DNA from: a virus
DNA: 64,000 nt
Direction: 5' to 3' (one strand)
UHGV virus genome: UHGV-0312702
Part shown: piece by piece, positions 40,482-63,968 of the stretch
How the letters are laid out: each line of letters opens with the position of its first letter
Position numbering within the stretch: the first letter of the stretch is position 1
Made by a program: the position numbers and the translations under genes
Notes under the pieces: generated by a model
What the model was told of the DNA's origin: nothing
The model's input: the letters and a program-made list of their open reading frames with translations, nothing else
Database searches by the model: none

Positions 40482-40485
40482 AAAT

Positions 40486-40578
40486 TGGAGGAAGATACCA
40501 GACTTGAACTGGTACACCGATTTCTCAGCTACTGGCAGTTTAGCAAACTGCTCCCTTACCTTTTAGGGTTAATCTTCC
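40486..40578 (-). tRNA. tRNA-Ser (anticodon GCU), long variable arm
   Basis: 93 nt; acceptor GGAAGAT/ATCTTCC; anticodon loop TTGCTAA. Confidence 0.65.
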
Positions 40579-40579
40579 A

Positions 40580-41314
40580 TTATTTCTGTAATGCGCTCTT
40601 CATTTCTGGTGTTGCAATAGTGTCAATCACACCAGTTTTACAAGCATCATCAAACCAGTCTGGTAAGATACCTGCTAAGAACCCATTGATATTCGTTTTA
40701 AGGTACTCTGCAATAAGGGCAGCTTCTTCTTCAATCATCTGCACAACTTCATCTGCATAAGCTGTAATCTTTGAGATACCTTCATTAATCTTACTAACAG
40801 CCTGATTAGCTAAATCAGAAACAGTATCAAGACCCTTATCAATAGCATCTTGTAAGTCACTTAATACATCATTAACGCTGTCTAGTGTATCATTAATAGC
40901 ATCAATAGCTTTTTGACCATACTCTGTAGCAACACCCATAATACCGCTGAATGGTGTACAACCAACTTGTTCTCCCGCTGCACCCATAACATTGGAATAT
41001 CCCTTTGCTACCTGCATACGTGATGAAAACTCGTCAATAGACTTTTGACCGTAGTCTGTTAGGGTCTTAGTAGTTGCTGTAGTGCTTGTCAGACTCGTTG
41101 TAAAGCTGTTTAGAAGGACTGTTGTAAGTCCAGCAGCAACAAGTTTTTCCTTCATTGCAGGGTCTGTTACAGAGCTAATAGAGCTTACAAGTGATGTAGA
41201 GGCAGCTACGGTTCCACCTAGAACTGCTGCACCAGTAATAAGGGGGTTAGAAAACCCTTTACCAGTTTTTAAGAGATTAAAAATCTCCTTACCTTGTCCT
41301 GTCATCTCTTTCAT
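40580..41314 (-). CDS. hypothetical protein inside tRNA cluster
   Basis: start set at ATG 41314 with RBS AAAGGTG; track start 41377 runs through tRNA-Phe. Confidence 0.45.
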   Translation of the reverse strand: MKEMTGQGKEIFNLLKTGKGFSNPLITGAAVLGGTVAASTSLVSSISSVTDPAMKEKLVAAGLTTVLLNSFTTSLTSTTATTKTLTDYGQKSIDEFSSRMQVAKGYSNVMGAAGEQVGCTPFSGIMGVATEYGQKAIDAINDTLDSVNDVLSDLQDAIDKGLDTVSDLANQAVSKINEGISKITAYADEVVQMIEEEAALIAEYLKTNINGFLAGILPDWFDDACKTGVIDTIATPEMKSALQK

Positions 41315-41330
41315 TAAGCACCTTTGAAAT

Positions 41331-41407
41331 TGGTAGTCCAGTGGGATTTGAACCCTCTTCTCATGTTTTTCAGACACGCGCTTTAACCATATAAGCTACT
41401 TGGACTA
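41331..41407 (-). tRNA. tRNA-Phe (anticodon GAA)
   Basis: acceptor TAGTCCA/TGGACTA; loop CTGAAAA; T-loop GGTTCAAATCC. Confidence 0.65.
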
Positions 41408-41412
41408 TAAAT

Positions 41413-41489
41413 TGGGGTGACCTACGGGATTTGAACCCGTATAGACCATGTTCACAGCATGGGTCATTACCATTTATGATAAGGCCACA
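41413..41489 (-). tRNA. tRNA-His (anticodon GUG)
   Basis: loop CTGTGAA, discriminator C. Confidence 0.6.
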
Positions 41490-41519
41490 TTTAAGGACTC
41501 TCGTAAGAACCCTTAGAAG

Positions 41520-41595
41520 TGGCAGCGGCATAAGGATTTGAACCTTAATAGGACAGCTTCAGAGACTGTTGCATTGCCAGTTATGCTATACCGCT
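41520..41595 (-). tRNA. tRNA-Gln (anticodon CUG)
   Basis: loop CTCTGAA, discriminator G. Confidence 0.6.
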
Positions 41596-41600
41596 AAATT

Positions 41601-41679
41601 TGGTACTCCATATCGGATTCGAACCGATACATAACACAGATTTTAAGTCTGGCCTCTCTGCCAATTGGAGTAATGGAGC
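41601..41679 (-). tRNA. tRNA with anticodon UAA (Leu codon UUA) but short variable loop
   Basis: loop CTTAAAA; T-arm ATCGG-TTCGAAT-CCGAT; discriminator A; no long variable arm. Confidence 0.45.
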
Positions 41680-41681
41680 AT

Positions 41682-41756
41682 TGGCGGGGGATGTTGGAAT
41701 TGAACCAACTTCTTCGATTTCAAAGACCGAGGTTTTAACCTTGTAAACTAATCCCC
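41682..41756 (-). tRNA. tRNA-Gln (anticodon UUG)
   Basis: loop CTTTGAA, discriminator G. Confidence 0.6.
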
Positions 41757-41765
41757 TTTAAATCT

Positions 41766-42323
41766 TTACTTTCTTAGTGGATGAATAAAGAATGCCAACA
41801 TAACTCTTTCCCTTGAGAATGCTCTTTCTTCTGGGACAACACTTTTAAGTTTCCACCCAACATAAATTCTCCAGTAAAATTGTTTACCAAAGACTTTAAT
41901 TGATGGGATAAAAGCAAATAATCCCCAAGCATTGCTGTTCCACATTAGGAGATAACCTGTCTGATTATCTTCAGGGTTAGAACTTACGTTGATATTACCT
42001 TTCCACTTAGTAACATCTTTTACATCTCTTCCTAACACATGGTAAGAGAAGTTATAAGCTTTGTTTCTCCAGAGCCATCCAACTCTCTGCATATAAACAC
42101 CGAGCTTACCAATCTTTCTAATCTTAGCCCATCGTTTGATATGACCTGCATCACCATCAATTGGGTTGTCATAAGTCTCCATCCATCTGAAACCAAAAGG
42201 CAGATGACCTTTCTTCTCACTGTAGAATGGGACTACGAAAGGTGCTAAGATAACTGCCAAGATTGCTGCAAATGGCTCTAACAAAGCTAAGAAAATCCAT
42301 GAAGCATACTTCAAATATCTCAT
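41766..42323 (-). CDS. membrane protein
   Basis: hydrophobic N-terminus WIFLALLEPFAAILAVILAPFVVPF. Confidence 0.5.
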   Translation of the reverse strand: MRYLKYASWIFLALLEPFAAILAVILAPFVVPFYSEKKGHLPFGFRWMETYDNPIDGDAGHIKRWAKIRKIGKLGVYMQRVGWLWRNKAYNFSYHVLGRDVKDVTKWKGNINVSSNPEDNQTGYLLMWNSNAWGLFAFIPSIKVFGKQFYWRIYVGWKLKSVVPEERAFSRERVMLAFFIHPLRK

Positions 42324-42562
42324 TGTCTAATCCTAGTAAGGAGGTAAACATTATTATTTGTTTCTGAGTTTTCTGGTAAAGCTGTCTCAAAATTGACGCT
42401 TTTAAATTGTCTCCCACCAAAGTAATGACCAATAAATTTTTGTACTTTTATTGGGTCACATTCCCAGCCAACTTTCAAGAAAATGTGGGTATCTATAGTG
42501 GGAACCCTTACAAACTCAATACTATTGGAATTTTCATGTTCAACGACGATTAATGTTTGCAT
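42320..42562 (-). CDS. hypothetical protein
   Basis: 80 aa coupled ORF. Confidence 0.35.
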   Translation of the reverse strand: MQTLIVVEHENSNSIEFVRVPTIDTHIFLKVGWECDPIKVQKFIGHYFGGRQFKSVNFETALPENSETNNNVYLLTRIRQ

Positions 42563-42580
42563 AAATCTCTCTTATTTATC

Positions 42581-42656
42581 TGGCGCAGGATAAGGGACTT
42601 GAACCCCTATTAACAGCTTCGTAGACTGTTGCTCTATCCATTTGAACTAATCCTGC
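42581..42656 (-). tRNA. tRNA-Arg (anticodon ACG)
   Basis: acceptor GCAGGAT/ATCCTGC; loop CTACGAA. Confidence 0.65.
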
Positions 42657-42661
42657 AAAAT

Positions 42662-42739
42662 TGGTGTTCCAAGACGGATTCGAACCGTCACTAGTACAAG
42701 GTTTGAGCTTGCATCCTCTGCCAATTGGGATACTGGAAC
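42662..42739 (-). tRNA. tRNA with anticodon CAA (Leu codon UUG) but short variable loop
   Basis: loop CTCAAAC; T-arm GACGG-TTCGAAT-CCGTC; discriminator A. Confidence 0.45.
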
Positions 42740-42740
42740 A

Positions 42741-42815
42741 TGGTACTCACTAAAGGACTTGAACCTTTTTCTTCATCTTGTAAGGGTGATGTTTTACCAT
42801 ATAAACTAAGCGAGT
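42741..42815 (-). tRNA. tRNA-Val (anticodon UAC)
   Basis: loop CTTACAA. Confidence 0.55.
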
Positions 42816-42911
42816 GTGAAAGAGGTCTGAAGTTGTGCCACTAACTCAACTCCGTGGAATTTGTTACGGTCTTCAGTTGACTCAAAGTGGTCTTTCACTT
42901 GACCTCTGAAT

Positions 42912-42987
42912 TGGTGCTCCCACAAGGATTCGAACCCTGATAAGTTGCTTACAAGGCAACCGTAATAGCCAATTATACGATAGGAGC
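42912..42987 (-). tRNA. tRNA-Thr (anticodon UGU)
   Basis: stem GTTGC/GCAAC, loop CTTGTAA. Confidence 0.65.
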
Positions 42988-42994
42988 ATTAATT

Positions 42995-43069
42995 TGGAGC
43001 ATCCAGAGGGAATCGAACCCTCAACCTCAGTTTGGAAGACTGTAATTTTCCCGTTTAAACTATGGATGC
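42995..43069 (-). tRNA. tRNA-Gly (anticodon UCC)
   Basis: acceptor GCATCCA/TGGATGC; loop CTTCCAA; discriminator U. Confidence 0.6.
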
Positions 43070-43075
43070 ACTAAT

Positions 43076-43151
43076 TGGTGGAGAAGCAGGGAATTGAACC
43101 CTGTACTTAAGTTTGCAAAACTTATGTTTTAACCATGTAAACTACATCCCC
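43076..43151 (-). tRNA. tRNA-Ala (anticodon UGC)
   Basis: G3:U70 wobble in acceptor stem; loop TTTGCAA. Confidence 0.6.
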
Positions 43152-43157
43152 AATGTT

Positions 43158-43233
43158 TGGTACAGGTGGAGGGAATTGAACCCATCGTCTTACTGATTAA
43201 GAGTCAGCCGCATAACCATTTTGCTACACCTGC
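43158..43233 (-). tRNA. tRNA-Lys (anticodon CUU)
   Basis: loop CTCTTAA. Confidence 0.55.
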
Positions 43234-43240
43234 ATTAATT

Positions 43241-43316
43241 TGGTACACCTAGAGAGATTCGAACTCACACTGAGCAGATTCTAAGTCTGCTGCCTCTACC
43301 AGTTGGGCTATAGGTG
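43241..43316 (-). tRNA. tRNA with anticodon UAG (Leu codon CUA) but short variable loop
   Basis: 6-bp anticodon stem AGCAGA/TCTGCT; loop CTTAGAA; discriminator A. Confidence 0.45.
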
Positions 43317-43563
43317 CATTAAATCTTTTTAGAGAACTTCTAAGAACCTAAGCAACAAGGTTCCACAACAAGCTGTAATAACCTTAGAAGCCCTCTAAAA
43401 AGACCTAAAAAGGTCTTTGCATAGTCTTGTTTAATCCGGTGACTAGAACCTTTGGAGAGCTTGATATTATCTCTTCTCCGTGACACCTACTAGGTGCTTT
43501 ACTGTGCGTGTACGACAATACACGAGGGATACCAAAGCAACATCCGAATGAAGCTTGGCTTTA

Positions 43564-43653
43564 AATCTTATTAGGCGGTAAGTAAAGGAGTCGAACCCTC
43601 ACCGTATCTCTACAGTGGCAACTGTTTTCAAGACAGTTTGGCTACCATTAGCC
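43564..43653 (-). tRNA. tRNA-Ser (anticodon UGA), long variable arm
   Basis: acceptor GGTAGGT/ACTTACC; loop CTTGAAA; discriminator G; CC but no terminal A encoded. Confidence 0.55.
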
Positions 43654-43676
43654 GCTACCTACCCCTAATAAGACTT

Positions 43677-43759
43677 TGGCATGGGACGGAGGAGTTGAAC
43701 CCCTTTGAAACGGTTTTGGAGGCCGTTGCTCATGCCTTAGAGTCTTAACATCGTCCCAC
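43677..43759 (-). tRNA. atypical tRNA-like gene, candidate tRNA-Trp (anticodon CCA)
   Basis: acceptor GTGGGAC/GTCCCAT; loop CTCCAAA; about 7 extra nt in D-arm region. Confidence 0.4.
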
Positions 43760-43901
43760 ACTATAATTCGAAACTTACCGTATTATCTCAACACTGTAAA
43801 GCCCCTTCTCAGATTATTTACATGTTCTGGAAAACATGAGATACAGACCACCTCCCTACAGGAAGACCCGCTTAGGTCGTCTAAGTAATCTGCTAACTAA
43901 T

Positions 43902-43978
43902 TGGCACACCCTACAGGATTCGAACCTGTAACTAACGATTTAGAAGACCGTTGCTCTATCCAATTGAACTAAGGGTGC
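43902..43978 (-). tRNA. tRNA-Arg (anticodon UCU)
   Basis: acceptor GCACCCT/AGGGTGT; loop CTTCTAA. Confidence 0.65.
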
Positions 43979-44271
43979 ATTAATCTTTAAAGACTCTCTT
44001 AGAAAGCCCTTAAAGATGCCCACCTTATTAATCATACCGTGGGCTAGTACGCCAAATTCTTTGATGAGGGATTGGAAGACCTCACTGGTGTTTAGCCTAT
44101 CAAGCTACTGCCAGAAAAACATTGTCGTTTGCATTTATTTTAAATTTGCAAAATAGACGCTACGCAACGAAAACTATTCAGAATATGTACAACAAATTTC
44201 CCCACATTGTGTTACGTCTAACGCTCATGTATTGGTGTTTGAATTATACATATTATGAATTATTTTTAGTT

Positions 44272-44300
44272 ACTATAAAGTAGTCACATCTCAATGTCAA
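44272..44300 (-). promoter_or_regulatory. strong sigma70-like promoter inside tRNA cluster
   Basis: minus strand TTGACA (44295-44300), 17-nt spacer, TATAGT (44272-44277). Confidence 0.55.
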
Positions 44301-44315
44301 CAACTTTATTGAAAT

Positions 44316-44390
44316 TGGTTGTAGGTGAGGGTATCGAACCCTCTTCTAACGGTTATCAGCCGTTTGCATTACCATTTATGCTAACCCACA
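44316..44390 (-). tRNA. tRNA-Ile (anticodon GAU)
   Basis: loop CTGATAA. Confidence 0.6.
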
Positions 44391-44392
44391 AT

Positions 44393-44469
44393 TGGAGGTT
44401 CAGGTGGGAATCGAACCCACATTCATAGGGCTTATGAAACCCCTGCATTACCTTATCTGCGACTGAACC
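44393..44469 (-). tRNA. tRNA-Met (anticodon CAU)
   Basis: loop TTCATAA; G-C-rich anticodon stem. Confidence 0.55.
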
Positions 44470-44473
44470 ATAT

Positions 44474-44549
44474 TGGTAGAAGTGGAGGGATTCGAACCCA
44501 TCGCCTGTCAGATTAAAAGTCTGCCGCATCACCATTCTGCTACACTTCC
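44474..44549 (-). tRNA. tRNA-Lys (anticodon UUU)
   Basis: loop CTTTTAA. Confidence 0.55.
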
Positions 44550-44698
44550 ATTAAATTATCTTTGTAGATAAGCTACCCAGACTTGCTTAAGGTCTGTAGC
44601 GATGTGCCTTGTTGGGTTTAAATCTAGAATTTACCCTTTCACCCTTTGTGGTCGCATACTCACAGGTAAGCTTAATAGCTCACCTACAAAGATAATTA

Positions 44699-44830
44699 CC
44701 AGACCGTTGTTTATCATCTTAAGTGCTACCATTACACCAACTCGACATCTGCCGAGTGAAGGAATCGAACCTTCGCCTTTTCTTTACCGGAGAAATAGAT
44801 TGTTTAAGTTTTGCTGTAAACGGTCTTCTG
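44699..44830 (-). ncRNA. candidate Y-RNA-like ncRNA E1 with tRNA-like module
   Basis: 5' box CAGAAGACC; terminal helix AGACCGTT/AACGGTCT; internal T-arm GAAGG-TTCGATT-CCTTC, acceptor-like hairpin ACTCGGC-AGAT-GTCGAGT, D-arm-like TGGTGTAATGGTAGCAC. Confidence 0.4.
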
Positions 44831-44843
44831 TAAATTTGTTGAG

Positions 44844-44917
44844 CCAGACCAAGTTTTAAATTTTCAAAATTAAATTGGCTTGAAATTTCATACATTCTTG
44901 CTGAATTTGGTCTTCTG
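44844..44917 (-). ncRNA. candidate Y-RNA-like ncRNA E2
   Basis: same 5' box; terminal helix AGACCAA/TTGGTCT (covaries with E1/E3). Confidence 0.35.
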
Positions 44918-45004
44918 CTCCTTTAAAGAATACTCGCAAGAACTCTTTAAGGGAGGGGCTAAATAGCCCTCTCAAAACATCATTTTGAAATACTTATTAT
45001 AATT

Positions 45005-45082
45005 TGGCGGTTACGAAGGGATTTGAACCCTCATCATCTCCCGTGACAGGGGAGTATTTTAACCAGATTAAACTACATAACC
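45005..45082 (-). tRNA. tRNA-Asp (anticodon GUC)
   Basis: stem CTCCC/GGGAG, loop CTGTCAC, discriminator G. Confidence 0.65.
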
Positions 45083-45087
45083 TTTAT

Positions 45088-45175
45088 TGGTGTGCCGTGT
45101 AGGAGTCGAACCTACCGAGTCTCAATGACAAGGGATTTACAGTCCCCACCGCTACCATCTACGGGATAACGACAC
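45088..45175 (-). tRNA. tRNA-Tyr (anticodon GUA), long variable arm
   Basis: 88 nt; loop CTGTAAA. Confidence 0.6.
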
Positions 45176-45184
45176 ATTTTAATT

Positions 45185-45261
45185 TGGCGGTTAGTCAGGG
45201 ATTCGAACCCTGTGCCATTCGCTTAACAGGCGACCGCACATACCTTATGTGCTTCCTAACC
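45185..45261 (-). tRNA. tRNA-Asn (anticodon GUU)
   Basis: loop CTGTTAA. Confidence 0.6.
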
Positions 45262-45272
45262 TTAATACATTG

Positions 45273-45331
45273 CCAGACCGTGTTTTTCTTTTATCCGCAA
45301 AAAGTAGTTTGTTGCTGAATACGGTCTTCTG
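45273..45331 (-). ncRNA. candidate Y-RNA-like ncRNA E3
   Basis: 5' box; terminal helix AGACCGT/ACGGTCT; begins about 6 nt after a tRNA 3' end. Confidence 0.35.
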
Positions 45332-45337
45332 CAAAAT

Positions 45338-45413
45338 TGGAGGCGGGTGCAGGAGTCGAACCTGCCGATACCATGCTAATGAGACATGTGAGACGCCCTT
45401 TCTCTATACCCGC
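45338..45413 (-). tRNA. tRNA-Met (anticodon CAU), second copy
   Basis: loop CTCATTA; possible 1:72 mismatch. Confidence 0.55.
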
Positions 45414-45425
45414 AATTCTTAATGA

Positions 45426-45498
45426 CCAGACCAAATCTCTTCTTTGTCCGATTGAATGTCAGATGAATAAGATTAAATTTGCTGTAATTGGTCTTCTG
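45426..45498 (-). ncRNA. candidate Y-RNA-like ncRNA E4
   Basis: 5' box; terminal helix AGACCAA/TTGGTCT. Confidence 0.35.
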
Positions 45499-45505
45499 TC
45501 AAAAC

Positions 45506-45580
45506 TGGTGTCGTAGACAGGATTCGAACCTGCGAGCAACTGATTGAAGGTCAGGTGGCTAACCATTTGCCTTCTACGAC
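45506..45580 (-). tRNA. tRNA-Glu (anticodon UUC)
   Basis: acceptor GTCGTAG/CTACGAC; loop CCTTCAA. Confidence 0.6.
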
Positions 45581-45581
45581 A

Positions 45582-45938
45582 TTAAACCATTGTAATTCCA
45601 CTATGAACCTCTCTGTGGCAATTAGCGCATAGCAAAACACATTTATCAAGTTCTTTTTTAACCTTTTCCCAAGATGCACCCATAAGTTTTGATGGTGTAT
45701 TCTCTTTTTCGTTTGGGTTAAGGTGATGCCATTCTAAAGCATTTTTACATTTATTATAGCCACAAATTATGCAACTATCGCCATAAAGCTTATATGCTTT
45801 CTCCCTATTGGCATCCTCTCTAAGTTTTGTCCTTAATGCACAACATTTTAGACAATTTACTCTATTACCGGCGTTACCATTCTTATGAATGCTATGTTCA
45901 GTTAAACCATGAACTGGACATTCTTTTAAAAATCTCAT
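45582..45938 (-). CDS. HNH endonuclease
   Basis: EWHHLNP and CANCHREVH motifs plus Cys pairs; start at ATG 45938 with RBS AAGGGG; track start 46016 runs through tRNA-Pro. Confidence 0.7.
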   Translation of the reverse strand: MRFLKECPVHGLTEHSIHKNGNAGNRVNCLKCCALRTKLREDANREKAYKLYGDSCIICGYNKCKNALEWHHLNPNEKENTPSKLMGASWEKVKKELDKCVLLCANCHREVHSGITMV

Positions 45939-45955
45939 AGTAACCCCTTTAAATT

Positions 45956-46032
45956 TGGTCTCTGTTGGAGGACTTGAACCTCCGGCCTTACCGCCCCAAA
46001 CGGAACGCTCTACCAAGCTGAGCTAAACAGAG
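45956..46032 (-). tRNA. tRNA-Pro (anticodon UGG)
   Basis: acceptor CTCTGTT/AACAGAG; loop TTTGGGG. Confidence 0.6.
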
Positions 46033-46197: not shown

Positions 46198-47613
46198 TTA
46201 CCAGATGTAACGGTCAATCATTACTGCTTTGAGCATTACGCTGATTGGGTCAAACTTCTCACCACCAAGCAGGGCTTTTAAAGTGGCTGGGGAGAACCCT
46301 GATACCATTGCTACACCGTTATCCTTAACAGACACTTCGCAAGTACCACTACGGTTTGCTAAGTACCAGAATACCAGTTGTGGCATTTCGTATCCAGCTT
46401 TTTTGTACTTACTACGAATTGCTTCAAAGTTTGTACGACCATTTGCACCATCAACCTGATTGAACTCCATATCAGAGAAGATGATAAGCTTACTTGGCAT
46501 ATCTTTCTGAGTCAAGTTGTTTCTCTTGCCTGTCTCAAGAATACGGTCAAAAGCTGCTTGTAAGTTGGTTGAACCATATTCAACATGACGCATTACCTGA
46601 CGGTGACGGTTTCGTAAATCACCACTCAGTTCGATGAAATGAGGGTTTGTTGAATAAACCATTAACTCGTTCTTAAAGCAACCTGTATTGCGTTCTGCTA
46701 CATACAAGGCAAGTGATACACCAATATCGAGGGCAGTAATTGAGCCAAGATTCACCCAAGACATTGAGCTTGAAACATCAGTCATACACAAGATGTTTTC
46801 ACCTTCTGCCATCCAGTTTGGTAGTGCTTTCCACTGCTCATTAGCAACATCTGCATTACCATACTTGATAGATTTAATCACATCGTATGGATAAACAGCA
46901 CCAGCATTAATCTTAGTCTCACCCTTTGATAAGGACTCAACGTAAGCTTTGTAGCGTTCTCCATCTTTACGGTTAAATAATTTTTGGTAACGTGCAGCAG
47001 CAAGTGAAGGAATCTTACTGTAGTCAATCTTACCAAACTCATTAGCAGAGATTTTTTGTTCAACTGTATCAGATAGTGCAGACAGCAGTGTGCGGTACTC
47101 TTTCTCGCTCAAGTTTGCAAACTTACAGAAACGTTTTACAAACTGTTTGTGACGTGGTTTTACTCGTGGTAACCACTTAGCTGCTAAACCTGCTGTTGCA
47201 GGGTCTAGTAAAGCTGCTTCTAAATGTTTGAAGGCATCTGTCTCAAAACGAGTACCTACAAAGATTTTGAAGTCATCAAAGCGACCAAGCTCTGCAATCT
47301 TATCCATAATGCGAAGAACCTGTGTAGGCTCTAAAACTTTATCTTCAATCGCTTGAAGTAAAACAGTTCGGAAAGCCTTACGCTCACCCATACCTTCTCG
47401 TACATCTCGCATATGCAGTAAAATACGAACTGCAACATCAACATCCTCATGCAAAGCTTTGTAGAACAAGTCTGGTAAGATTTCTACATTGCTACGGCTA
47501 GAACCAGCAGCTTTGTAAAAGTCTACAAGAGCAGACATTGATGAAGTATGGTTTACAGCACCATTTTCAGTTCGACCTGCATGAAGGTGCGCATGTTTAA
47601 ATAATTCGCTCAT
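46198..47613 (-). CDS. Ro60/Rsr-like protein (TROVE-like N-terminus + vWA domain)
   Basis: MIDAS DVSSSM plus LGSI, GSTN...IIFSDMEF segments resembling Ro60 vWA as recalled from memory. Confidence 0.55.
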   Translation of the reverse strand: MSELFKHAHLHAGRTENGAVNHTSSMSALVDFYKAAGSSRSNVEILPDLFYKALHEDVDVAVRILLHMRDVREGMGERKAFRTVLLQAIEDKVLEPTQVLRIMDKIAELGRFDDFKIFVGTRFETDAFKHLEAALLDPATAGLAAKWLPRVKPRHKQFVKRFCKFANLSEKEYRTLLSALSDTVEQKISANEFGKIDYSKIPSLAAARYQKLFNRKDGERYKAYVESLSKGETKINAGAVYPYDVIKSIKYGNADVANEQWKALPNWMAEGENILCMTDVSSSMSWVNLGSITALDIGVSLALYVAERNTGCFKNELMVYSTNPHFIELSGDLRNRHRQVMRHVEYGSTNLQAAFDRILETGKRNNLTQKDMPSKLIIFSDMEFNQVDGANGRTNFEAIRSKYKKAGYEMPQLVFWYLANRSGTCEVSVKDNGVAMVSGFSPATLKALLGGEKFDPISVMLKAVMIDRYIW

Positions 47614-49323: not shown

Positions 49324-49695
49324 ATGAAGGCTAAGAGTGCAAAAGACTTTTATTGCTTCCTACAATCCTATATTAATTCCGTGGAGAAAGGTGAGAGATA
49401 TAATCTTAACGATGTTATTGCATCACCTTTAACATGGAGACTAAGTAGATGGCCTGAAGAAGATATCACACCAACTAGTGAACACCCTACCTACAAACCA
49501 GATATTAATCTCCCAGATTCAGAAAAGTTACTATACCCAATGTTCCACATTGTTGGGCTTGGTACGTTTCTTATGGATATTCAGTATGTAATTGGTAAGG
49601 GTTATAAGGTAGAAGGTATTGTTGTTGGTGATGTATCTCCACAACATAAAGGCTATTTTAGATTAAACGCACGTTTAGAGGCTAAAAAGAAATGA
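49324..49695 (+). CDS. hypothetical protein, paralog of N-terminal domain of next gene
   Basis: shares KAK..DF..F..G.RY...YKPD...LLY...MD(I/L)QY with 49692-50825. Confidence 0.5.
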   Translation: MKAKSAKDFYCFLQSYINSVEKGERYNLNDVIASPLTWRLSRWPEEDITPTSEHPTYKPDINLPDSEKLLYPMFHIVGLGTFLMDIQYVIGKGYKVEGIVVGDVSPQHKGYFRLNARLEAKKK

Positions 49696-50825
49696 TTAAA
49701 GCAAAGACTTACCCAGACTTCAAAGAGTTTGTAAAGGGCTTCGTTGCAAATGTAAAGGCTGGTAAGAGATATGATTTTAGAACATATCAAGAAGCTATTT
49801 TGCCACTTACCTATAGTTCATATTGGCCTGAAGCTGATATCGCAGAAGTTGAGAAGTTTGACTACAAACCAGACTACAAAGTACCTTTTAGTGATGATTT
49901 GCTTTACAGCATCGGTGCTCAAATGAGAACTTCTGACTTCTTCATGGATTTACAATATGCAATTGTCAATGGTAAAGATGTTGATACAGTGTATTGTGAA
50001 TGGTTGGCAAGAGTTAAGCCGTTCTCAATGTTAAATGCTAAGTTGAAGGATGCTATCAAACCACCATCAATCACTCAGCAACCAACCAATCAGACAGTTA
50101 ATGAGGGCGGTACACTTACCTTAAGCATTGTTGCAGCTAATGCCACAGGGTATCAGTGGAAGAAGGGTGATGAGGATATCACTAGTGCTACCTCTGCAAC
50201 TTACACAAAACAGTCAGTTGTTCCTTCTGATGCTGGTTCATACACTTGCGTTGTGTCTGGAGAGGGTGGAACAAGTGTAACTTCAGATGCAGCAACAGTC
50301 ACTGTGAATGCCTTACCAGTGATTACCAAGCAACCTTCTAACCAGACCATTAATGAAGGTGGAAACATCAGCTTAGCAGTTACTGCAACAGGTGCAACTG
50401 GTTATCAATGGAAGAAAGATGGTTCTGACATCCCTTCAGCTACAAATGCCACATATAGCAAATCTGGTGCACTTCCAGCAGATGCTGGTTCATACACTTG
50501 CGTTGTAACAGGTGCGGGAGGTTCTGTAACTTCTAACCCTGCAACAGTTACTGTGAAAGCTCTACCAGTTATCACTCAACAACCAACCAATCAGGAAATC
50601 ACTGAAGGTGAGACCTTAACGCTGAATGTTGTGGCAACAGGTGCAACAGGTTATCAGTGGAAGAAGGGTGGGGAAAACATCCCAGATGCAACGACTGCAA
50701 CTTACACCAAAGAGGGTGCAACTGCTGCTGATGCAGGAAGCTACACTTGTGTAGTTACTGGCGCAGGTGGCTCTGTAACATCTAGTGCGGCAACAGTTAC
50801 AGTTAACCCAGCAGGGGAGGCATAA
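49692..50825 (+). CDS. protein with three tandem Ig-like domains
   Basis: three ~90 aa repeats with YQWKK and GSYTCVV(T/S)G motifs. Confidence 0.6.
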   Translation: MIKAKTYPDFKEFVKGFVANVKAGKRYDFRTYQEAILPLTYSSYWPEADIAEVEKFDYKPDYKVPFSDDLLYSIGAQMRTSDFFMDLQYAIVNGKDVDTVYCEWLARVKPFSMLNAKLKDAIKPPSITQQPTNQTVNEGGTLTLSIVAANATGYQWKKGDEDITSATSATYTKQSVVPSDAGSYTCVVSGEGGTSVTSDAATVTVNALPVITKQPSNQTINEGGNISLAVTATGATGYQWKKDGSDIPSATNATYSKSGALPADAGSYTCVVTGAGGSVTSNPATVTVKALPVITQQPTNQEITEGETLTLNVVATGATGYQWKKGGENIPDATTATYTKEGATAADAGSYTCVVTGAGGSVTSSAATVTVNPAGEA

Positions 50826-57178: not shown

Positions 57179-57427
57179 TTAGTTGTAACCTTGTTTGCTG
57201 TAGTATAGGGAGACGATTTTTTCTCCCCAGTAGTGGTAGTGATATTCCTCGTTTATGGCTTCTTTTACAGCATCCTTCCAAAAGTCATCGGTAGGGTTAT
57301 AATCTGGTAGCACCTGCTGAATCAGCATTTTGATAAGGTCAAAGGTGTTATCTGTGCCACCGATATCGAATTTTGCATCAAGTTCGTGGCAGCCATAAGC
57401 ATTAACAGTTACGCGGATAGTTGACAT
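57179..57427 (-). CDS. hypothetical small protein
   Basis: 82 aa behind conserved cassette. Confidence 0.5.
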   Translation of the reverse strand: MSTIRVTVNAYGCHELDAKFDIGGTDNTFDLIKMLIQQVLPDYNPTDDFWKDAVKEAINEEYHYHYWGEKIVSLYYSKQGYN

Positions 57428-57494
57428 AATTTAGATTCTCCAGTTTAGGACTTTATTTAGTGGGAAGGTTAATCCCTCCCCGTTGATTAGTAAT
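57428..57494 (-). promoter_or_regulatory. conserved upstream cassette, type B
   Basis: GGGGAGGG...CCCC hairpin, CACTAAAT box, GGAGA RBS. Confidence 0.55.
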
Positions 57495-57758
57495 TTACTG
57501 CATGTTGGCGTATGTTGCAAGCCTTTTTTCGTTGTATTTTGTCAGAATCTCACAAGATAAAACATCATATTTTGTAACCGCTTTGCCTTTGTCGAGGTCA
57601 AAGAATCCGAACGCTTTACCGTCTTTGAATCCGACAACCTCGTAAGACTCTTTGATGATTTCACCATTGAACAAATCACTTTCGATACGGTGGAATAGTG
57701 CTACATCCTCTTTGTCGGATGCAATTTGTAAAAGTGTGGTCAGTTCGACGTGTTCCAT
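57495..57758 (-). CDS. hypothetical small protein
   Basis: 87 aa behind cassette. Confidence 0.5.
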   Translation of the reverse strand: MEHVELTTLLQIASDKEDVALFHRIESDLFNGEIIKESYEVVGFKDGKAFGFFDLDKGKAVTKYDVLSCEILTKYNEKRLATYANMQ

Positions 57759-57819
57759 TTTGAATCTCCAGTTTAGGATTTTATTTAGTGGGGGAGGTCA
57801 TCCCCCGTTGATTGACAAT
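57759..57819 (-). promoter_or_regulatory. conserved upstream cassette, type B
   Basis: GGGGGATGACCTCCCCC hairpin + CACTAAAT + GGAGAT. Confidence 0.55.
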
Positions 57820-58350
57820 TTACAGATTTTTGATTGTCTCGTCAATATCTTTTTCAATATCTTTTAAAGTTTTTTCTAAGTTCTTGATATTAAACGTTAA
57901 ACCTTCACCGAGAGTCTTAGAATAACCGCTAGGACGTAAACCATATAGCTCGATTTCTTCCACTTCAAAGAGGTTAACAGTCCAACCGCCTACGCCATAG
58001 GCTGAAGCAACAGTATTTGCAGGTGCGTTGTAAAACTTGTTCAAATTATGAATAGAACGTTCATAAGCCATTTTATAGCTATTTAAAAGGTTTTTAACGT
58101 GGCTGTGAACGTTTTTACACTCATCTAAGTAAAGACCTAAAAACATCGGGAGAAGTTCCGCGACAGCTTGCATAAAGTGAGAGACTACCACGGTTGCAAC
58201 ATTACGACGATGAACGTAATAAGCCCCGTTTCCTGATTTGGTAATGGTTGCAAAGTGTACCCCATTACAACGGAATTCATAGGTATCTTTAACAGGCTTA
58301 GACATTACATTATTTGAACGAATATAGTTGATAGCTTTGAACTTGTTCAT
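57820..58350 (-). CDS. hypothetical protein
   Basis: 176 aa behind cassette. Confidence 0.5.
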   Translation of the reverse strand: MNKFKAINYIRSNNVMSKPVKDTYEFRCNGVHFATITKSGNGAYYVHRRNVATVVVSHFMQAVAELLPMFLGLYLDECKNVHSHVKNLLNSYKMAYERSIHNLNKFYNAPANTVASAYGVGGWTVNLFEVEEIELYGLRPSGYSKTLGEGLTFNIKNLEKTLKDIEKDIDETIKNL

Positions 58351-58430
58351 TTTAGAATCTCCTAGTTTAAGGACTTTATTTAGTGGGGAAGGTCATTCCC
58401 TCCCCGTTGATTAGTAATTTACTTGTTTTG
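58351..58430 (-). promoter_or_regulatory. conserved upstream cassette, type B
   Basis: GGGGAGGGAATGACCTTCCCC hairpin + CACTAAATAAAG + GGAGAT. Confidence 0.55.
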
Positions 58431-58573
58431 ATAGTTGATTGCAAGCAATTTTTTAAGTTTATCTATAAAGAATCTTTTAAGTAAATCCCTTTTAGATAAA
58501 CCCCCTCGAACAAATGTACTATTGTCAAGGGGTATCGTCAAGTAATTTTTTAAAGTTTTTTGTAAGTTATTGA

Positions 58574-58915
58574 TTAACTGATGAATATTTTTTCAGGTTT
58601 TACATAGCTGATACGCTGGCTTTTTAGCAGGTCATCCCAGATTAGCGCGGCAATATGAGAATAACCGGATTCACGTAAGAGCTTCATTGCTTTACTTCTC
58701 GTTTCAAAACGGCTTGCGTAGTACTCGCTATTCAGTGTCGTTTTATTCCCTTCGTTATCTGTATGGATGATTTGCATCACTTGAAAGGGGCTGACATCCT
58801 CGCCTTTGTTCCACTGCTCAAAGTATTTTAGGCACTGCATAGGTGACATCTTATCACTGACTTGAGTTGACCAAGATGAATCTTCTTTATTGGTAATTAC
58901 AGTTACATAAGCCAT
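58574..58915 (-). CDS. hypothetical protein
   Basis: start set at ATG after cassette RBS; track start 58981 reads through the cassette. Confidence 0.5.
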   Translation of the reverse strand: MAYVTVITNKEDSSWSTQVSDKMSPMQCLKYFEQWNKGEDVSPFQVMQIIHTDNEGNKTTLNSEYYASRFETRSKAMKLLRESGYSHIAALIWDDLLKSQRISYVKPEKIFIS

Positions 58916-58990
58916 TTTAGAATCTCCTAGTTTAAGGACTTTATTTAGTAGGGAGGTTATTGCCTCCCCGTTGATTGGCAATTTACAGAC
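58916..58990 (-). promoter_or_regulatory. conserved upstream cassette, type B
   Basis: GGGGAGGCAATAACCTCCC hairpin + CTAAATAAAG + GGAGAT. Confidence 0.55.
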
Positions 58991-59005
58991 TTTTATCAGG
59001 CTTGT

Positions 59006-59302: not shown

Positions 59303-59866
59303 TTAACCTAAAAAGTCTTTTAAATTGCGCTCTGTGATGTTTGCCGTGATTTTATCCAGCAAGTCACAAAACACGGAACTATCACCGCTATTCTGTACAA
59401 TTTTCGCCATACTTAACAAATCATCGTCAACATAGCCTAAATTGCGGTTAGTTGCATCTGGTACAAAGAAAGGTGCATACATCGCACTAAATTTCGTCGA
59501 GTGAAGGCCAATAATCCAATTTTTATCAAAGTGTCCGGTAAAGCTGGCGATATCGCTCATGTTGTCACAAGAATAATCATCCTCTAGCTCTTCCTCTGGG
59601 ATATCCATCTCAATGACAATTACGTCCTGCGTTTCCATTTGGAAAGCTGCCGTAATAAGCCCAGATTCTAAAGCGTTTTGAATGCAGCGTTCACGAATGT
59701 AAGAATCTTCCTCATCTTCCAGACATTCCGTTTTGATAATCTTGTTCATTGGGTAAACGTAGAAACAATCATCCATGTAGGAGCAGTTCCAGATTCCTTC
59801 TGGCTTGTCACCACCATTCAGCAAGTTTACAAAGTTTTTGAGGGTAGTGCCGTGATAGCATTTCAT
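59303..59866 (-). CDS. hypothetical protein, possible H-Y-E type ADP-ribosyltransferase
   Basis: N-terminal CYHGT motif followed by YVY; weak motif-level evidence only. Confidence 0.3.
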   Translation of the reverse strand: MKCYHGTTLKNFVNLLNGGDKPEGIWNCSYMDDCFYVYPMNKIIKTECLEDEEDSYIRERCIQNALESGLITAAFQMETQDVIVIEMDIPEEELEDDYSCDNMSDIASFTGHFDKNWIIGLHSTKFSAMYAPFFVPDATNRNLGYVDDDLLSMAKIVQNSGDSSVFCDLLDKITANITERNLKDFLG

Positions 59867-59951
59867 TTTTGAATCTCCAGTTTAGGATTTAGTGGTAAAG
59901 CTCTTTATCTGGGGCTTAAGATATCAACTTTTAAGCCCCCTGTAAAGTACT
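59867..59951 (-). promoter_or_regulatory. conserved upstream cassette, type A
   Basis: GGGGCTTAA-aagttgatatc-TTAAGCCCC hairpin + CCACTAAATCCTAAACTGGAGAT. Confidence 0.55.
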
Positions 59952-60200
59952 TTATTTAACTTTCTTTGAGAAAATTAGTTTAACTGCAACCGTAGGAATC
60001 TCGTCAGCGCTTGTAACCAGCATTACTTTTTGGGTAACCAACTTATAACCGTTCTTTGCAGCATATGCGGTAAAACGGTTAACATTGTAACTATAAGTTT
60101 TTGGTGTGCTATCTGGCATGTGGTAAAGAAAAGGTTTACCCAAATTTTCTTCTTGTGTCAACAGTCGGCAGGTATCAGGGATATTGAAATAGTTCATCAT
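59952..60200 (-). CDS. hypothetical small protein
   Basis: 82 aa behind cassette. Confidence 0.5.
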   Translation of the reverse strand: MMNYFNIPDTCRLLTQEENLGKPFLYHMPDSTPKTYSYNVNRFTAYAAKNGYKLVTQKVMLVTSADEIPTVAVKLIFSKKVK

Positions 60201-60292
60201 TTTTGAATCTCCAGTTTAGGATTTAGTGGTAAAGCTCTTTATCTGGGGCTTAAGATATCAACTTTTAAGCCCCCTGTAAAGTACTTTATCAG
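60201..60292 (-). promoter_or_regulatory. conserved upstream cassette, type A
   Basis: identical to 59867-59951 element. Confidence 0.55.
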
Positions 60293-60490
60293 TTATTTTT
60301 TGACAACTTTTAAAACTGCAAGATAACCTAAGCAATAAGAATCACCGAAGAGAGTTCTGCCCATGAAAGAATCCTCTTTGATATCCTTTGCAGTGACAGT
60401 TTTTTCTACGCCGTGGGAAAGGACTACATCACCGACTTTGATGTCTTTGATGTGTGTTGTTTCAATGGTTAAGCCGTTAATAATAGCCAT
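60293..60490 (-). CDS. hypothetical small protein
   Basis: 65 aa behind cassette. Confidence 0.5.
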   Translation of the reverse strand: MAIINGLTIETTHIKDIKVGDVVLSHGVEKTVTAKDIKEDSFMGRTLFGDSYCLGYLAVLKVVKK

Positions 60491-60593
60491 TTTAAAATCT
60501 CCTAGTTTAAGGACTTTATTTAGTGGGGAAGGTCATTCCCTCCCCGTTGATGTGTAATTTAGCCTATCTAAAAATCAGTGTCAATAATTTTTT
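60491..60593 (-). promoter_or_regulatory. conserved upstream cassette, type B, with extension
   Basis: type B hairpin plus GATGTGTAATTTAGCCTATCTAAAAATCAGTGTCAA block repeated at 61542-61630. Confidence 0.55.
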
Positions 60594-60998
60594 TTAGAGT
60601 TCTGCGTAAATTGCATCACAGATATTACGGAAGTCATGATTTGACAAATTACGTTGTAACCAAGTGGCGAAGAAATCAGCGATTGCAAAATTAGCATCAT
60701 ACTCGACAGATAGCCACACTTTAACAGCAAATCGGAACATTTTCAAGTCTAACTCTTTATTCATTACCTTAGATTTGCCTAACATGTCGGACATCTCATA
60801 TTGTGCACCGTCTAGCGTGATACCTGCTGCAACGTCAGACAATGAGTTTTTTACGTTTTCAACGTCTAAGATAACACTTTGAATCTTCCCGATAATGTTG
60901 TGCAATGTTTCATCCGGTGCTGATGATGTAATAACATTAATCCGGTTAACGGTCAAACGTGCTTTTAAAATTGATAACTCACGGTTATTAATAGCCAT
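60594..60998 (-). CDS. hypothetical protein
   Basis: 134 aa behind cassette. Confidence 0.5.
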   Translation of the reverse strand: MAINNRELSILKARLTVNRINVITSSAPDETLHNIIGKIQSVILDVENVKNSLSDVAAGITLDGAQYEMSDMLGKSKVMNKELDLKMFRFAVKVWLSVEYDANFAIADFFATWLQRNLSNHDFRNICDAIYAEL

Positions 60999-61084
60999 TT
61001 TTTAGTTCTCCAATTTAGGATTTAGTGGTAAAGCTCTTTATCTGGGGCTTACTTTATCGAACTATAAGCCCCTTGTAAAGTACT
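60999..61084 (-). promoter_or_regulatory. conserved upstream cassette, type A variant
   Basis: stem GGGGCTTA/TAAGCCCC kept, loop sequence differs. Confidence 0.5.
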
Positions 61085-61357
61085 TTATACTAAATGCAGC
61101 TTTTTACCTTTTACTATGATGTAACTAGATGCGCTATTGCTGCATACATCTTGGTAAATTCTGCGCAAACGCCCTTCATAGTGTACTTTCCAACTGGTTG
61201 GAATCTTTTTCCCGTATCCTGTAGCAGTTTTTTGGAGTCCTGCAACTTGCCAATCCAAAATGTGCTGTTCAGCTTGTAAATCCTCGAAGTGCATTACACC
61301 GTTCACATAGTGGCGTAGGGTTACGTTTAAAGTGCGACCGTTGTTAGTAGTGTACAT
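61085..61357 (-). CDS. hypothetical protein
   Basis: start set at ATG 61357 (MYTTNNGR) behind RBS AAGAG. Confidence 0.45.
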   Translation of the reverse strand: MYTTNNGRTLNVTLRHYVNGVMHFEDLQAEQHILDWQVAGLQKTATGYGKKIPTSWKVHYEGRLRRIYQDVCSNSASSYIIVKGKKLHLV

Positions 61358-61382: not shown

Positions 61383-61541
61383 TTATTTTGACAGTTCACT
61401 AATTAAGACATCAAAGATTATATCATTATCTGCTACAGTTGCAACACCAGTGATATAATCAATTTCTAGGATAACAACAACTTTCGTACATAAACCGTCA
61501 TCTATATCATTCCAGACAACTTTATCACCTGCACAAAACAT
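61383..61541 (-). CDS. small hypothetical protein (52 aa)
   Basis: ORF below track cutoff, preceded by canonical cassette and GGAGAT RBS. Confidence 0.45.
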   Translation of the reverse strand: MFCAGDKVVWNDIDDGLCTKVVVILEIDYITGVATVADNDIIFDVLISELSK

Positions 61542-61630
61542 TTTCAGAATCTCCAGTTTAGGACTTTATTTAGTGGGGAAGGTCATTCCCTCCCCGTTGA
61601 TGTGTAATTTAGCCTATCTAAAAATCAGTG
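61542..61630 (-). promoter_or_regulatory. conserved upstream cassette, type B, with extension
   Basis: near-identical to 60491-60593. Confidence 0.55.
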
Positions 61631-61963
61631 TCAAACACTTTGTTTTCGTTTGCTCAATTCTTGAACAATTACAGCGTAGTAGTCTTTTAAGTCACTGATA
61701 TTTAAAGCATTTATTAGTGAATTATAATCATCGACTAACTGAAAATCATCTTTGAAGATGTCACTTATCTGATAGGTGTTAGCTTTGTATCTGAAGCTCA
61801 TTTCTAACCGTTTTATTTGTTCATCACTTAAACGCTCCAGAAAACTCATTACAAGGCTATTATTGACCTGTTGCGTGATTGCCTTACTTGCCAGATTGTA
61901 GGCGCTGTACGCCTTATATAGCGCCATAATAGCAATGATTGCAGTGACTCCCATCATTAACAT
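61631..61963 (-). CDS. small membrane protein
   Basis: N-terminal TM MLMMGVTAIIAIMALY; coupled to upstream gene, no cassette. Confidence 0.5.
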   Translation of the reverse strand: MLMMGVTAIIAIMALYKAYSAYNLASKAITQQVNNSLVMSFLERLSDEQIKRLEMSFRYKANTYQISDIFKDDFQLVDDYNSLINALNISDLKDYYAVIVQELSKRKQSV

Positions 61964-62346: not shown

Positions 62347-62859
62347 TTAGTTCTTAAAGATATTCATCACTGAGTCTTTCAACGATTCCAAACGTTCTAA
62401 TACTTCAGTTTCTGCGTCTGAATTGCTCACCTCTTCTTTTAGTCTATCCTCTAAATCATCACCGTCACGATAGCACCAATCGAAAGCATAACCAAGATAA
62501 AAACTTTCTAAAACCGTGTTACCGTTTGCATCCACAACTTTCGCGGCAAGGTTGTACTCTGAAGCCTCTAAATCTCTTTCTAGTTCTTTCTGTAAGCTGG
62601 TGTAAGCCTCTTTTGATGGATTTTCCCGACCTTGTTTTGCATAGTCACTAGAAAGCTGTTTAAGGCTGTAATGTAAAGGGATTGCATATTTAAACTCATT
62701 ATGCTGATGGTTAGGATTTTTAATAGTTACACCGCCTTGATGGTCATCTGTAAACTGCCAATTATCAAGGTTATGGCTTGCTTCAAAGCAATTAACAGCC
62801 TCATAGATGATAGAAAATTTTTCTTTTACAACTTCAAAGGTAGCGTCTACAGTTTTCAT
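62347..62859 (-). CDS. hypothetical protein
   Basis: 170 aa behind cassette. Confidence 0.5.
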   Translation of the reverse strand: MKTVDATFEVVKEKFSIIYEAVNCFEASHNLDNWQFTDDHQGGVTIKNPNHQHNEFKYAIPLHYSLKQLSSDYAKQGRENPSKEAYTSLQKELERDLEASEYNLAAKVVDANGNTVLESFYLGYAFDWCYRDGDDLEDRLKEEVSNSDAETEVLERLESLKDSVMNIFKN

Positions 62860-62947
62860 TTTTGAATCTCCAGTTTAGGATTTAGTGGTAAAGCTCTTTA
62901 TCTGGGGCTTAAGATATCAACTTTTAAGCCCCCTGTAAAGTACTTTA
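62860..62947 (-). promoter_or_regulatory. conserved upstream cassette, type A
   Basis: identical to 59867-59951 element. Confidence 0.55.
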
Positions 62948-63205
62948 TCAGATTAAATTGCCAGTTAATGATAAGTGCATTTTATAGCCTTTTTTGGTAA
63001 AAACGTTCACTTTACCTAGTGTTTTTACACCTTTAAAAAGGTTGTTTGAACTGCGTTTTAAAGTTAACTGCTTATCAACCTTCACGCCCCACCTTACAGC
63101 AGATTGTTTCCCGTTGTCAATCACTTTACCGCATAACTTTTTAGCCATGTTGCGAGCGTCATCACGAGTCTTTGCAGTAATTACAACGTTTTTGATAATA
63201 GCCAT
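62948..63205 (-). CDS. hypothetical small basic protein
   Basis: start set at ATG 63205 (MAIIKN) behind cassette RBS. Confidence 0.45.
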   Translation of the reverse strand: MAIIKNVVITAKTRDDARNMAKKLCGKVIDNGKQSAVRWGVKVDKQLTLKRSSNNLFKGVKTLGKVNVFTKKGYKMHLSLTGNLI

Positions 63206-63291
63206 TTTTAAGTTCTCCAATTTAGGATTGAGTGGTAAAGTTCTTTATCTGGGGCTTACTTTATCGAACTATAAGCCCCTTGTAAAGTACT
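63206..63291 (-). promoter_or_regulatory. conserved upstream cassette, type A variant
   Basis: same variant as 60999-61084. Confidence 0.5.
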
Positions 63292-63672
63292 TTATTTAAT
63301 TTTGAAAATTGTTACATAACCATCACTACCGATTATTTGAGACACTCCAGCTTTTTCTACTTGATAGCCCATATTTTCAAGATGATAAACAGCATCATCA
63401 TAACCATATGCGCCGCCTTGATAACGTCTCTTATCACATCTTACTAATACCTTTCCACGTCCAGCAAGTGCATTCAGTACAGCTTTTTCACTTGAGAGTG
63501 TGCCATCTAACATGGTTGCCGTGTAATGGTTGATTCTATTCCCGTTAATATCATACTTAAAATTGAATGCGTGAACAACAATCAATTTGCCGTTAAATTT
63601 TTCATCAAGTGACTTCTCCAGTGCGTTGCGGAAGTTGTCTTTGTTGATGAATTTTGGTGCACGATAAGCCAT
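63292..63672 (-). CDS. hypothetical protein
   Basis: 126 aa behind cassette. Confidence 0.5.
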   Translation of the reverse strand: MAYRAPKFINKDNFRNALEKSLDEKFNGKLIVVHAFNFKYDINGNRINHYTATMLDGTLSSEKAVLNALAGRGKVLVRCDKRRYQGGAYGYDDAVYHLENMGYQVEKAGVSQIIGSDGYVTIFKIK

Positions 63673-63761
63673 TTTGAATCTCCTAGTTTAAGGGTTAATT
63701 TAGTAAAGCTCTTTATCTGGGGCTTAAGATATCAGCTTTTAAGCCCCCTGTAAAGTACTTT
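63673..63761 (-). promoter_or_regulatory. conserved upstream cassette, type A
   Basis: GGGGCTTAAAAGCTGATATCTTAAGCCCC hairpin + RBS. Confidence 0.55.
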
Positions 63762-63968
63762 TTATTTATCGTAGTAGTAAATTGCTGTCTGTCTTGTAAA
63801 CTTCTTAGTGTTTATTGTAAGGTAGCAATTAGAATTAATAGCCGTTTCTACATAGTTGCAATAGTCAGCTTCTGAAATTCTACGCCATGCGCCGCACACT
63901 TGCATGTAAAAACGTTTTACATTTGTATTAACGTTGGTTGTAACCATCAATTCACGACTGTAAAGCAT
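63762..63968 (-). CDS. hypothetical small protein
   Basis: 68 aa behind cassette; next cassette truncated by window end. Confidence 0.45.
   Translation of the reverse strand: MLYSRELMVTTNVNTNVKRFYMQVCGAWRRISEADYCNYVETAINSNCYLTINTKKFTRQTAIYYYDK

Follow-up and report, generated by a model that had tools for sequence, protein, structure and literature searches.

What is encoded by the small gene at positions 59303-59866 (minus strand) of the virus genome UHGV-0312702? The window analyzed here, the whole stretch of 64,000 nucleotides (nt), belongs to a Felixounavirus (Felix O1-like myovirus). A preliminary description of this locus proposed, from motifs in the translated protein, a possible ADP-ribosyltransferase (ART) of the H-Y-E class. 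The open reading frame (ORF) it relied on is sound. The coding sequence starts with ATG, ends with a TAA stop at 59305-59303, is preceded by a ribosome-binding site (RBS), and is conserved as a gene; the ORF translation is 187 amino acids (aa) long and begins with MKCYHGTTLKNFVNLL, as had been stated. The protein belongs to the phrog_3303 family, and we conclude that it very probably has the ART fold, as judged from its predicted structure. With moderate confidence, we also favor the view that it acts early as a stand-alone, active mono-ART of the H-Y-[ED] clade, with a host or defense protein as its substrate. The class proposed initially is thus supported at the level of fold and motifs, but the conserved acid is Asp, not Glu.

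The AlphaFold2 model, obtained with a 40-sequence alignment, has a mean predicted local distance difference test score (pLDDT) of 87.1 and a predicted template modeling score (pTM) of 0.84; the five models score 83-87, and pLDDT falls below 50 at residues 26-30 only. The N-terminal half is formed by a strand (residues 2-8), a helix (9-16), a loop, a second strand (35-39), a helix (40-46), and a long helix (54-76). The remainder contains a strand (80-88), a short bridge (95-96), two strands (108-110 and 118-126), and three C-terminal helices. This is the split beta-sheet fold by which ARTs bind nicotinamide adenine dinucleotide (NAD+), and structure prediction, one of the checks suggested in the preliminary description, therefore came out in favor of its proposal. 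The protein begins directly at strand 1 and thus represents a single ART domain with a C-terminal helical extension.

The closest fold match of the model is Tpt1/KptA (9ld3_A; score 8.0, root-mean-square deviation 2.0 over 77 residues, 18% identity). It is followed by heat-labile enterotoxin A (7.8 and 7.1), TreX (7.1), pertussis toxin S1 (6.8), TreTu (6.8), ArtA (6.7), CC0527 (6.1), mouse Tpt1 (6.0), CARDS toxin (5.4), PARP15 (5.4), Scabin (5.3), DarT (5.0), PARP10 (5.0), Arr (4.8), Pierisin (4.8), diphtheria toxin (4.3), and AcrIF11 (4.0). Foldseek comparison with the PDB is weaker and points in the same direction, with TreX/TreTu and pertussis toxin S1 at E-values of 0.07-0.2, and comparison with BFVD retrieves phage proteins annotated as DarT (E-value 3e-4) and Arr. 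An unrelated small early protein, for which both the predicted fold and its matches are artifacts, would agree with Foldseek E-values of at least 0.07 against the PDB and with the position of every sequence-level match below its significance threshold; beside the model and its matches, this explanation is highly improbable.

The residues expected at an ART active site are conserved in the family. In 200 aligned sequences, typically 20-40% identical to the query, the strand-1 NAD-site motif H-G-[ST], represented here by H5-G6-T7 (59846..59854, minus strand), is conserved at 97, 95, and 89%, respectively. This is the H-G-T/S motif pointed out in the preliminary description, and within the window it is specific for the gene: the pattern [FYWL]-H-G-[ST] occurs in one of the 163 ORFs of at least 60 aa (six frames, 24,276 aa in total), namely 59303..59866. 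The second signature position is Y36 in strand 2 (59759..59761, minus strand; 99%), the Tyr of the H-Y-[EDQ] signature. The distance from H5 to Y36 is 31 residues, compared with 30 in Arr and 34 in PARP1. Helix 1 and strand 2 are joined by a loop whose segment W26-N-C-S29 (59780..59791, minus strand) contains an invariant W26 (100%) and an almost invariant S29 (97%); by its position, this loop may correspond to the donor-site loop of PARPs.

A third conserved segment is the family-specific motif D97-Y-S99-C100-D-N102-M103 (59558..59578, minus strand), in which D97 (99.5%), S99 (99%), C100 (93%), N102 (91%), and M103 (94%) are nearly invariant, D97 being the proposed catalytic acid. The preliminary description had instead supposed a pair of tyrosines and a catalytic Glu. 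The YVY sequence is present within F35-Y36-V37-Y38, and acidic stretches are found at residues 50-54 and 91-97. Within the supposed pair, Y36 holds and Y38 varies; E95 is likewise variable, being Gln in sister alleles.

Relationships with known ARTs can also be traced at the sequence level. The window protein has no match in Pfam, NCBIfam, or PADLOC, so the proposed profile search against ART families brought nothing for this protein itself; the support comes from its relatives. When 150 family members were scanned one by one, sub-threshold matches to the Pfam PARP family were found in 31 (best E-value 6e-4) and to Tpt1/KptA in seven (best E-value 5e-3), while each of the other Pfam families matched at most four members. 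The PARP matches span residues 1-23 (1-40 in member P0177) and profile positions 49-91; they cover the H-G-[ST] strand and the next helix, with the Tyr strand added in the long match of P0177. The gathering threshold of PF00644 (26.7 bits) was not reached, the best score among ten scanned sequences being 18.6 bits for a subfamily consensus. Two further families are probably chance matches below threshold: DUF6912 in four of the 150 members (best E-value 7e-5, residues ~45-122) and the Thoeris inhibitor family Tad6 in one (E-value 0.0055).

Local hhalign alignments of the 150-sequence profile, each non-significant alone (probability ~2%, single-sequence templates), place the same residues at the active sites of known enzymes. 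In the low-probability alignment with the PARP1 catalytic fragment (100% identical to PDB PARP1), H5 corresponds to H862 and Y36 to Y896. With Escherichia coli KptA, the HGT motif is paired with FLYHGTA, where the KptA NAD+ lobe begins, and the best, non-significant hmmsearch match in the PDB is VLFHGTA of Runella Tpt1. With Arr (sequences from PDB entries 2hw2 and 9iba), LEDDY (residues 94-98) lies opposite IEDDP, so that D97 falls on the catalytic D84 of Arr (P ~0.02-0.03); a relaxed alignment is collinear from H5, paired with Arr H19, through D97, paired with D84. Global-mode alignments with PARP1 and Arr gave meaningless end-to-end pairings, and the local alignments alone were used. When the PDB was searched by sequence, using the single protein or the profiles A2 and A3, all matches were non-significant; those to VapC6 and a peptide-binding protein were judged to be due to chance. 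Because the local alignments are mutually consistent and fit both the fold match and the conservation pattern, we infer that H5, Y36, and D97 form the signature, in the H-Y-D variant known from Arr; the assignment of D97 is deduced from these sequence comparisons.

The similarity to Arr raises the possibility of a small-molecule ART directed against an antiphage or antibiotic compound, either made by the host or present in the environment, which it would inactivate. Like Arr, the phage protein would be a minimal single-domain ART with the H-Y-D signature, and both have an E-D-D segment after a hydrophobic strand and a Pro (IFIVEPEGAIEDD in the phage protein, IVIEMDIPEEELEDD in Arr), which would form a similar catalytic segment of the type "hydrophobic strand - P - x3-4 - [IL]-E-D-D". 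The likeness is limited to the proposed triad and the EDD segment, and we regard an Arr-like function as very unlikely.

Comparison with the other ART groups places the family outside each of them. Relative to PARPs and diphtheria toxin, the Glu appears to be replaced by Asp, the second Tyr (PARP1 Y907, diphtheria toxin Y65) is not conserved, the protein is much smaller and lacks a helical regulatory domain, and an extra 23-residue helix (54-76) separates strands 2 and 3. The R-S-E clade, which comprises cholera toxin and heat-labile enterotoxin, pertussis toxin, Tre1/TreX, and the phage T4 proteins Alt, ModA, and ModB, is characterized by Arg in strand 1, an S-T-S motif, and a [QE]-x-E catalytic motif, whereas the phrog_3303 proteins have His in strand 1; S-T-S and E-x-E motifs are likewise absent from the family. 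AcrIF11 showed no sequence similarity to it. Membership in the DarT family is not indicated either, as there is no Pfam DarT match and no DarG-like partner at the loci compared.

Differences from Tpt1/KptA bear on the nature of the acceptor. In Tpt1, three of the four catalytic Arg/His residues are located in the N-terminal RNA-binding lobe. In KptA, the HGT motif is located at residues 104-107 of 184, whereas the HGT strand of the phage protein starts at residue 2; therefore, the phage protein lacks this lobe and with it most of the Arg-His-Arg-Arg tetrad. In addition, the third signature position is probably an invariant Asp in the phage family, which is also very acidic and stays below the cut-off of Pfam PF01885. 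The query has an isoelectric point (pI) of 4.2 and a net charge of -20; the family medians are 4.2 and -21, and 97% of members have a pI below 5. Such acidity would make a nucleic acid less plausible as the acceptor and would favor a small molecule or a protein, the latter possibly basic.

These observations weigh on another scenario, an ART of the DarT, pierisin, or Tpt1 capping-like type that marks host or phage DNA or RNA; halting host replication and protecting or repairing RNA ends are examples of what this might achieve. The closest fold match, Tpt1/KptA, belongs to such enzymes. However, with the HGT strand at its very start, the protein has no Tpt1 RNA-binding lobe, the strong negative charge of the family is atypical of enzymes that grip nucleic acids, and the Pfam DarT profile finds no match; we consider a nucleic-acid target quite unlikely. 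Because the protein is very acidic and contains neither an RNA- nor a DNA-binding lobe, a host protein or a host-defense protein is the most likely acceptor.

The favored reading can be formulated as a mechanism. The protein would be a minimal NAD+-dependent mono-ADP-ribosyltransferase of the H-Y-[E/D/Q] clade (diphtheria toxin, PARP, Tpt1, Arr). H5-G6-T7 of strand 1 and Y36 of strand 2 would hold the nicotinamide-ribose of NAD+, and the invariant W26/S29 loop would close the donor site. D97 in the D-x-S-C-x-N-M segment would take the place of the catalytic Glu/Asp, stabilizing the oxocarbenium intermediate and activating the acceptor. Nicotinamide would then be released and ADP-ribose passed to the target. 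In its timing and role, the protein may resemble T4 ModA/ModB or AcrIF11, with transcription by the host RNA polymerase soon after infection.

An ART-like fold could also serve without transfer to a macromolecule, as an NAD+ glycohydrolase or as a non-catalytic binder or sponge of NAD+, ADP-ribose, or an NAD-derived immune signal. Such a protein might act alongside phage NAD+ reconstitution genes, and genes of this kind do occur in related phages. The genome of the close relative AYO145A contains, at 84012-86722 (locus L012), adjacent genes annotated as ribose-phosphate pyrophosphokinase and a 593-aa nicotinamide phosphoribosyltransferase (gp050, gp049), and Pakpunavirus Adele is reported to encode the NARP1 NAD+ reconstitution pathway together with a macro-domain protein (PMC12846349). 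Therefore, both lineages that carry the family invest in NAD+/ADP-ribose metabolism, the link to the gene being contextual. But the NAD salvage genes are unlinked to it, tens of kb away, and the near-invariant D97 and the D-x-S-C-x-N-M segment would occupy the catalytic, acceptor-side position of ARTs, which exceeds the needs of a sponge. A protein of this type is thus unlikely, and transfer of ADP-ribose to a protein remains the reading we prefer. The AYO145A gp049/gp050 pair itself resembles the Adps/Namat NAD+ reconstitution pathway of Pakpunavirus (PMC12846349).

How widespread is the gene? The protein matches phrog_3303 over its full length (E-value 1.5e-84; residues 1-186 against positions 1-185 of the 186-position profile), a family placed by PHROGs in the category "unknown function". 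By tblastn, the gene is present in 373 phage records: ~234 from Ounavirinae infecting Escherichia, Salmonella, Shigella, and Citrobacter, 78 from Pseudomonas, 28 from Erwinia (Kolesnikvirus), 23 from Vibrio, and four from Pectobacterium. The Pseudomonas records are from Pakpunavirus, including PAK_P1, PaP1, JG004, PaoP5 (orf162), and Adele. When 1.84 billion cluster representatives were searched exhaustively with HMMER, 578 clusters at 50% identity were obtained with E-values of at most 1e-3; among the 150 of them that were listed, members are 131-242 aa long, mostly 170-200, with no large fusions. Almost no new members came from a third, word-indexed homolog search based on the 150-sequence profile, and it gave no Pfam-annotated or multidomain relatives. 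For four clusters, the names in the source databases are only "hypothetical", "uncharacterized", or "phage protein".

All the family contexts examined are phage contigs, and no cellular relative was found when the exact pattern [EQ]DD[YW]SC[DEP]N was searched in 185,579 bacterial and archaeal species genomes. At eight loci, drawn from Felixounavirus, Kolesnikvirus, and Pakpunavirus, from Vibrio phage, and from three metagenomic phages, the ART-like gene alone was common to all eight, and no conserved partner gene for an antitoxin, a macro-domain protein, or a glycohydrolase was present. The sources consulted, on Felixounavirus or Ounavirinae and ADP-ribosylation, on PaoP5 orf162, the Adele paper, the PhageExpressionAtlas, and a preprint on structure-based annotation of Pseudomonas phages, are silent on the family. 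phrog_3303 is best described as a new phage-specific family of the ART superfamily that lies outside every curated family. Its hallmarks are the putative W-x-x-S donor loop, the D-x-S-C-x-N-M segment, the inserted 23-residue helix, and the C-terminal helical extension.

The local variation of the gene suggests a role in interaction with the host. The 2.1 kb around it are 92-95% identical to many Felixounavirus genomes from Escherichia, Salmonella, and Shigella. In per-gene tblastn comparison of seven Felixounavirus loci (L023, L025, L030, L033, L034, L038, and L039), however, the 59303-59866 protein is only 54-56% identical, versus 84-99% for the proteins of flanking small genes; neighborhood blastn was swamped by repeated cassettes, and the per-gene comparison was used instead. 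Thus, two deeply diverged alleles seem to have been exchanged within an otherwise near-identical neighborhood. Both alleles keep all the motif residues, a pattern that fits a conserved active site combined with a fast-evolving surface. Allelic replacement of this kind is typical of genes facing a variable host factor, and the gene is likely a determinant of host interaction.

A more far-reaching interpretation is that phrog_3303 is an unrecognized phage-exclusive H-Y-D ART family with a new target, acting as a counter-defense or host-takeover factor, with the allele swap reflecting an arms race and perhaps with coupling to NAD+ reconstitution. The target could be, for example, a basic host immune protein or a nucleic-acid-binding protein. 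Taken in its entirety, we offer this interpretation tentatively, as a possibility that is rather doubtful.

The expression of the gene can be considered from its upstream region and its surroundings. The RBS GGAG (59875..59878, minus strand) lies 8 nt 5' of the ATG and is kept across the alignment of upstream cassettes. A sigma-70-like promoter is predicted by consensus match at 59918..59946 (minus strand), with a -35 hexamer TTTACA (59946-59941), a 17-nt spacer, and a -10 hexamer TATCTT (59923-59918); it agrees with the consensus at nine of 12 positions, and TG precedes the -10 hexamer. The hairpin GGGGCTTAA-(11 nt)-TTAAGCCCC (59911..59939, minus strand) overlaps the promoter spacer and the -10 hexamer and belongs to a ~90-nt cassette found upstream of six genes. 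TTTACA is identical in all six copies, and the hairpin stem is invariant, while its loop differs between two cassette variants. Since the hairpin lies within the promoter, a regulatory site seems more likely than a terminator.

The counterparts of the gene, AYO145A gp023 and wV8 gp021, are labeled "hypothetical protein", and gp023 is located within a co-directional block of small genes after rIIA, rIIB, polynucleotide kinase, and phosphatase. The contexts of the gene are arrays of small co-directional phage genes, each under its own sigma-70-like promoter cassette. Since the conserved TTTACA/hairpin/RBS cassette precedes each small gene, early expression is a reasonable expectation, with the host RNA polymerase probably transcribing the gene shortly after infection; the literature yielded no transcript data for members of the family.

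The six copies of the cassette, all on the minus strand within 59.8-63.8 kb, are located at 59863-59975, 60197-60309, 60996-61108, 62856-62968, 63203-63315, and 63671-63783. Each consists of ATAAAGTACTTTACA, the hairpin GGGGCTTA-loop-TAAGCCCC over the promoter spacer and -10 hexamer, AGATAAAGAGCTTTACC..., and then GGAG and ATG; the two variants differ in the loop and the -10 hexamer. A second cassette type, with the hairpin GGGGAAGGTCATTCCCTCCCC followed by GTTGAT...TAATTTA (repeat families D2, D4, D6, and D10), is found upstream of other small genes at 57422-57506, 57755-57831, 58345-58455, 58910-58994, 60485-60595, and 61535-61645. With two types of intergenic cassettes, the small-gene region contains at least two families of promoter/untranslated-region modules. 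The segment 56160-56790 (~630 nt) has no ORF of 40 aa or more and is filled with dense 11-nt-periodic repeats CTTAACA / TTAACAAG and, further along, GTAACTTTTA repeats with a 22-nt spacing (repeat families D7, D9, D11, D12, and D18); it looks like an iteron/origin region or a protein-binding array.

Elsewhere, the window contains terminase, portal, capsid, and tail genes, a family A DNA polymerase, a primase-helicase, and an array of 25 tRNA genes (40406-46032, minus strand). The array includes two tRNA-Met, three tRNA-Leu, and two each for Gln, Lys, Ser, and Arg, and is broken up by small ORFs and the gene of a DUF7338 protein (41766-42323). Adjoining it at 46198-47613 (minus strand) is a gene for a 471-aa protein with DUF2828 and DUF7788, the AYO145A homolog of which is labeled "RNA-binding protein". 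The 377-aa protein encoded at 49692-50825 (plus strand) has three immunoglobulin-like domains (Pfam Ig_3, Ig_2, and I-set; E-values to 5e-33), and its AYO145A homolog, labeled a tail protein, adjoins endolysin.

In summary, Felix O1-like (Ounavirinae) and PAK_P1-like (Pakpunavirus) phages are widely used in diagnostics and therapy, and the ART-fold assignment turns a "hypothetical" gene of 373 phage records into a hypothesis that can be tested by mutation of H5, Y36, and D97. If the protein is an ART, the family would form a fourth phage ART lineage beside T4 Alt/Mod, AcrIF11, and DarT-like proteins. If it modifies host proteins, the finding would bear on the means by which such phages disarm or shut down a host, and also on the safety annotation of therapeutic phages, the ART fold being a classic toxin fold.
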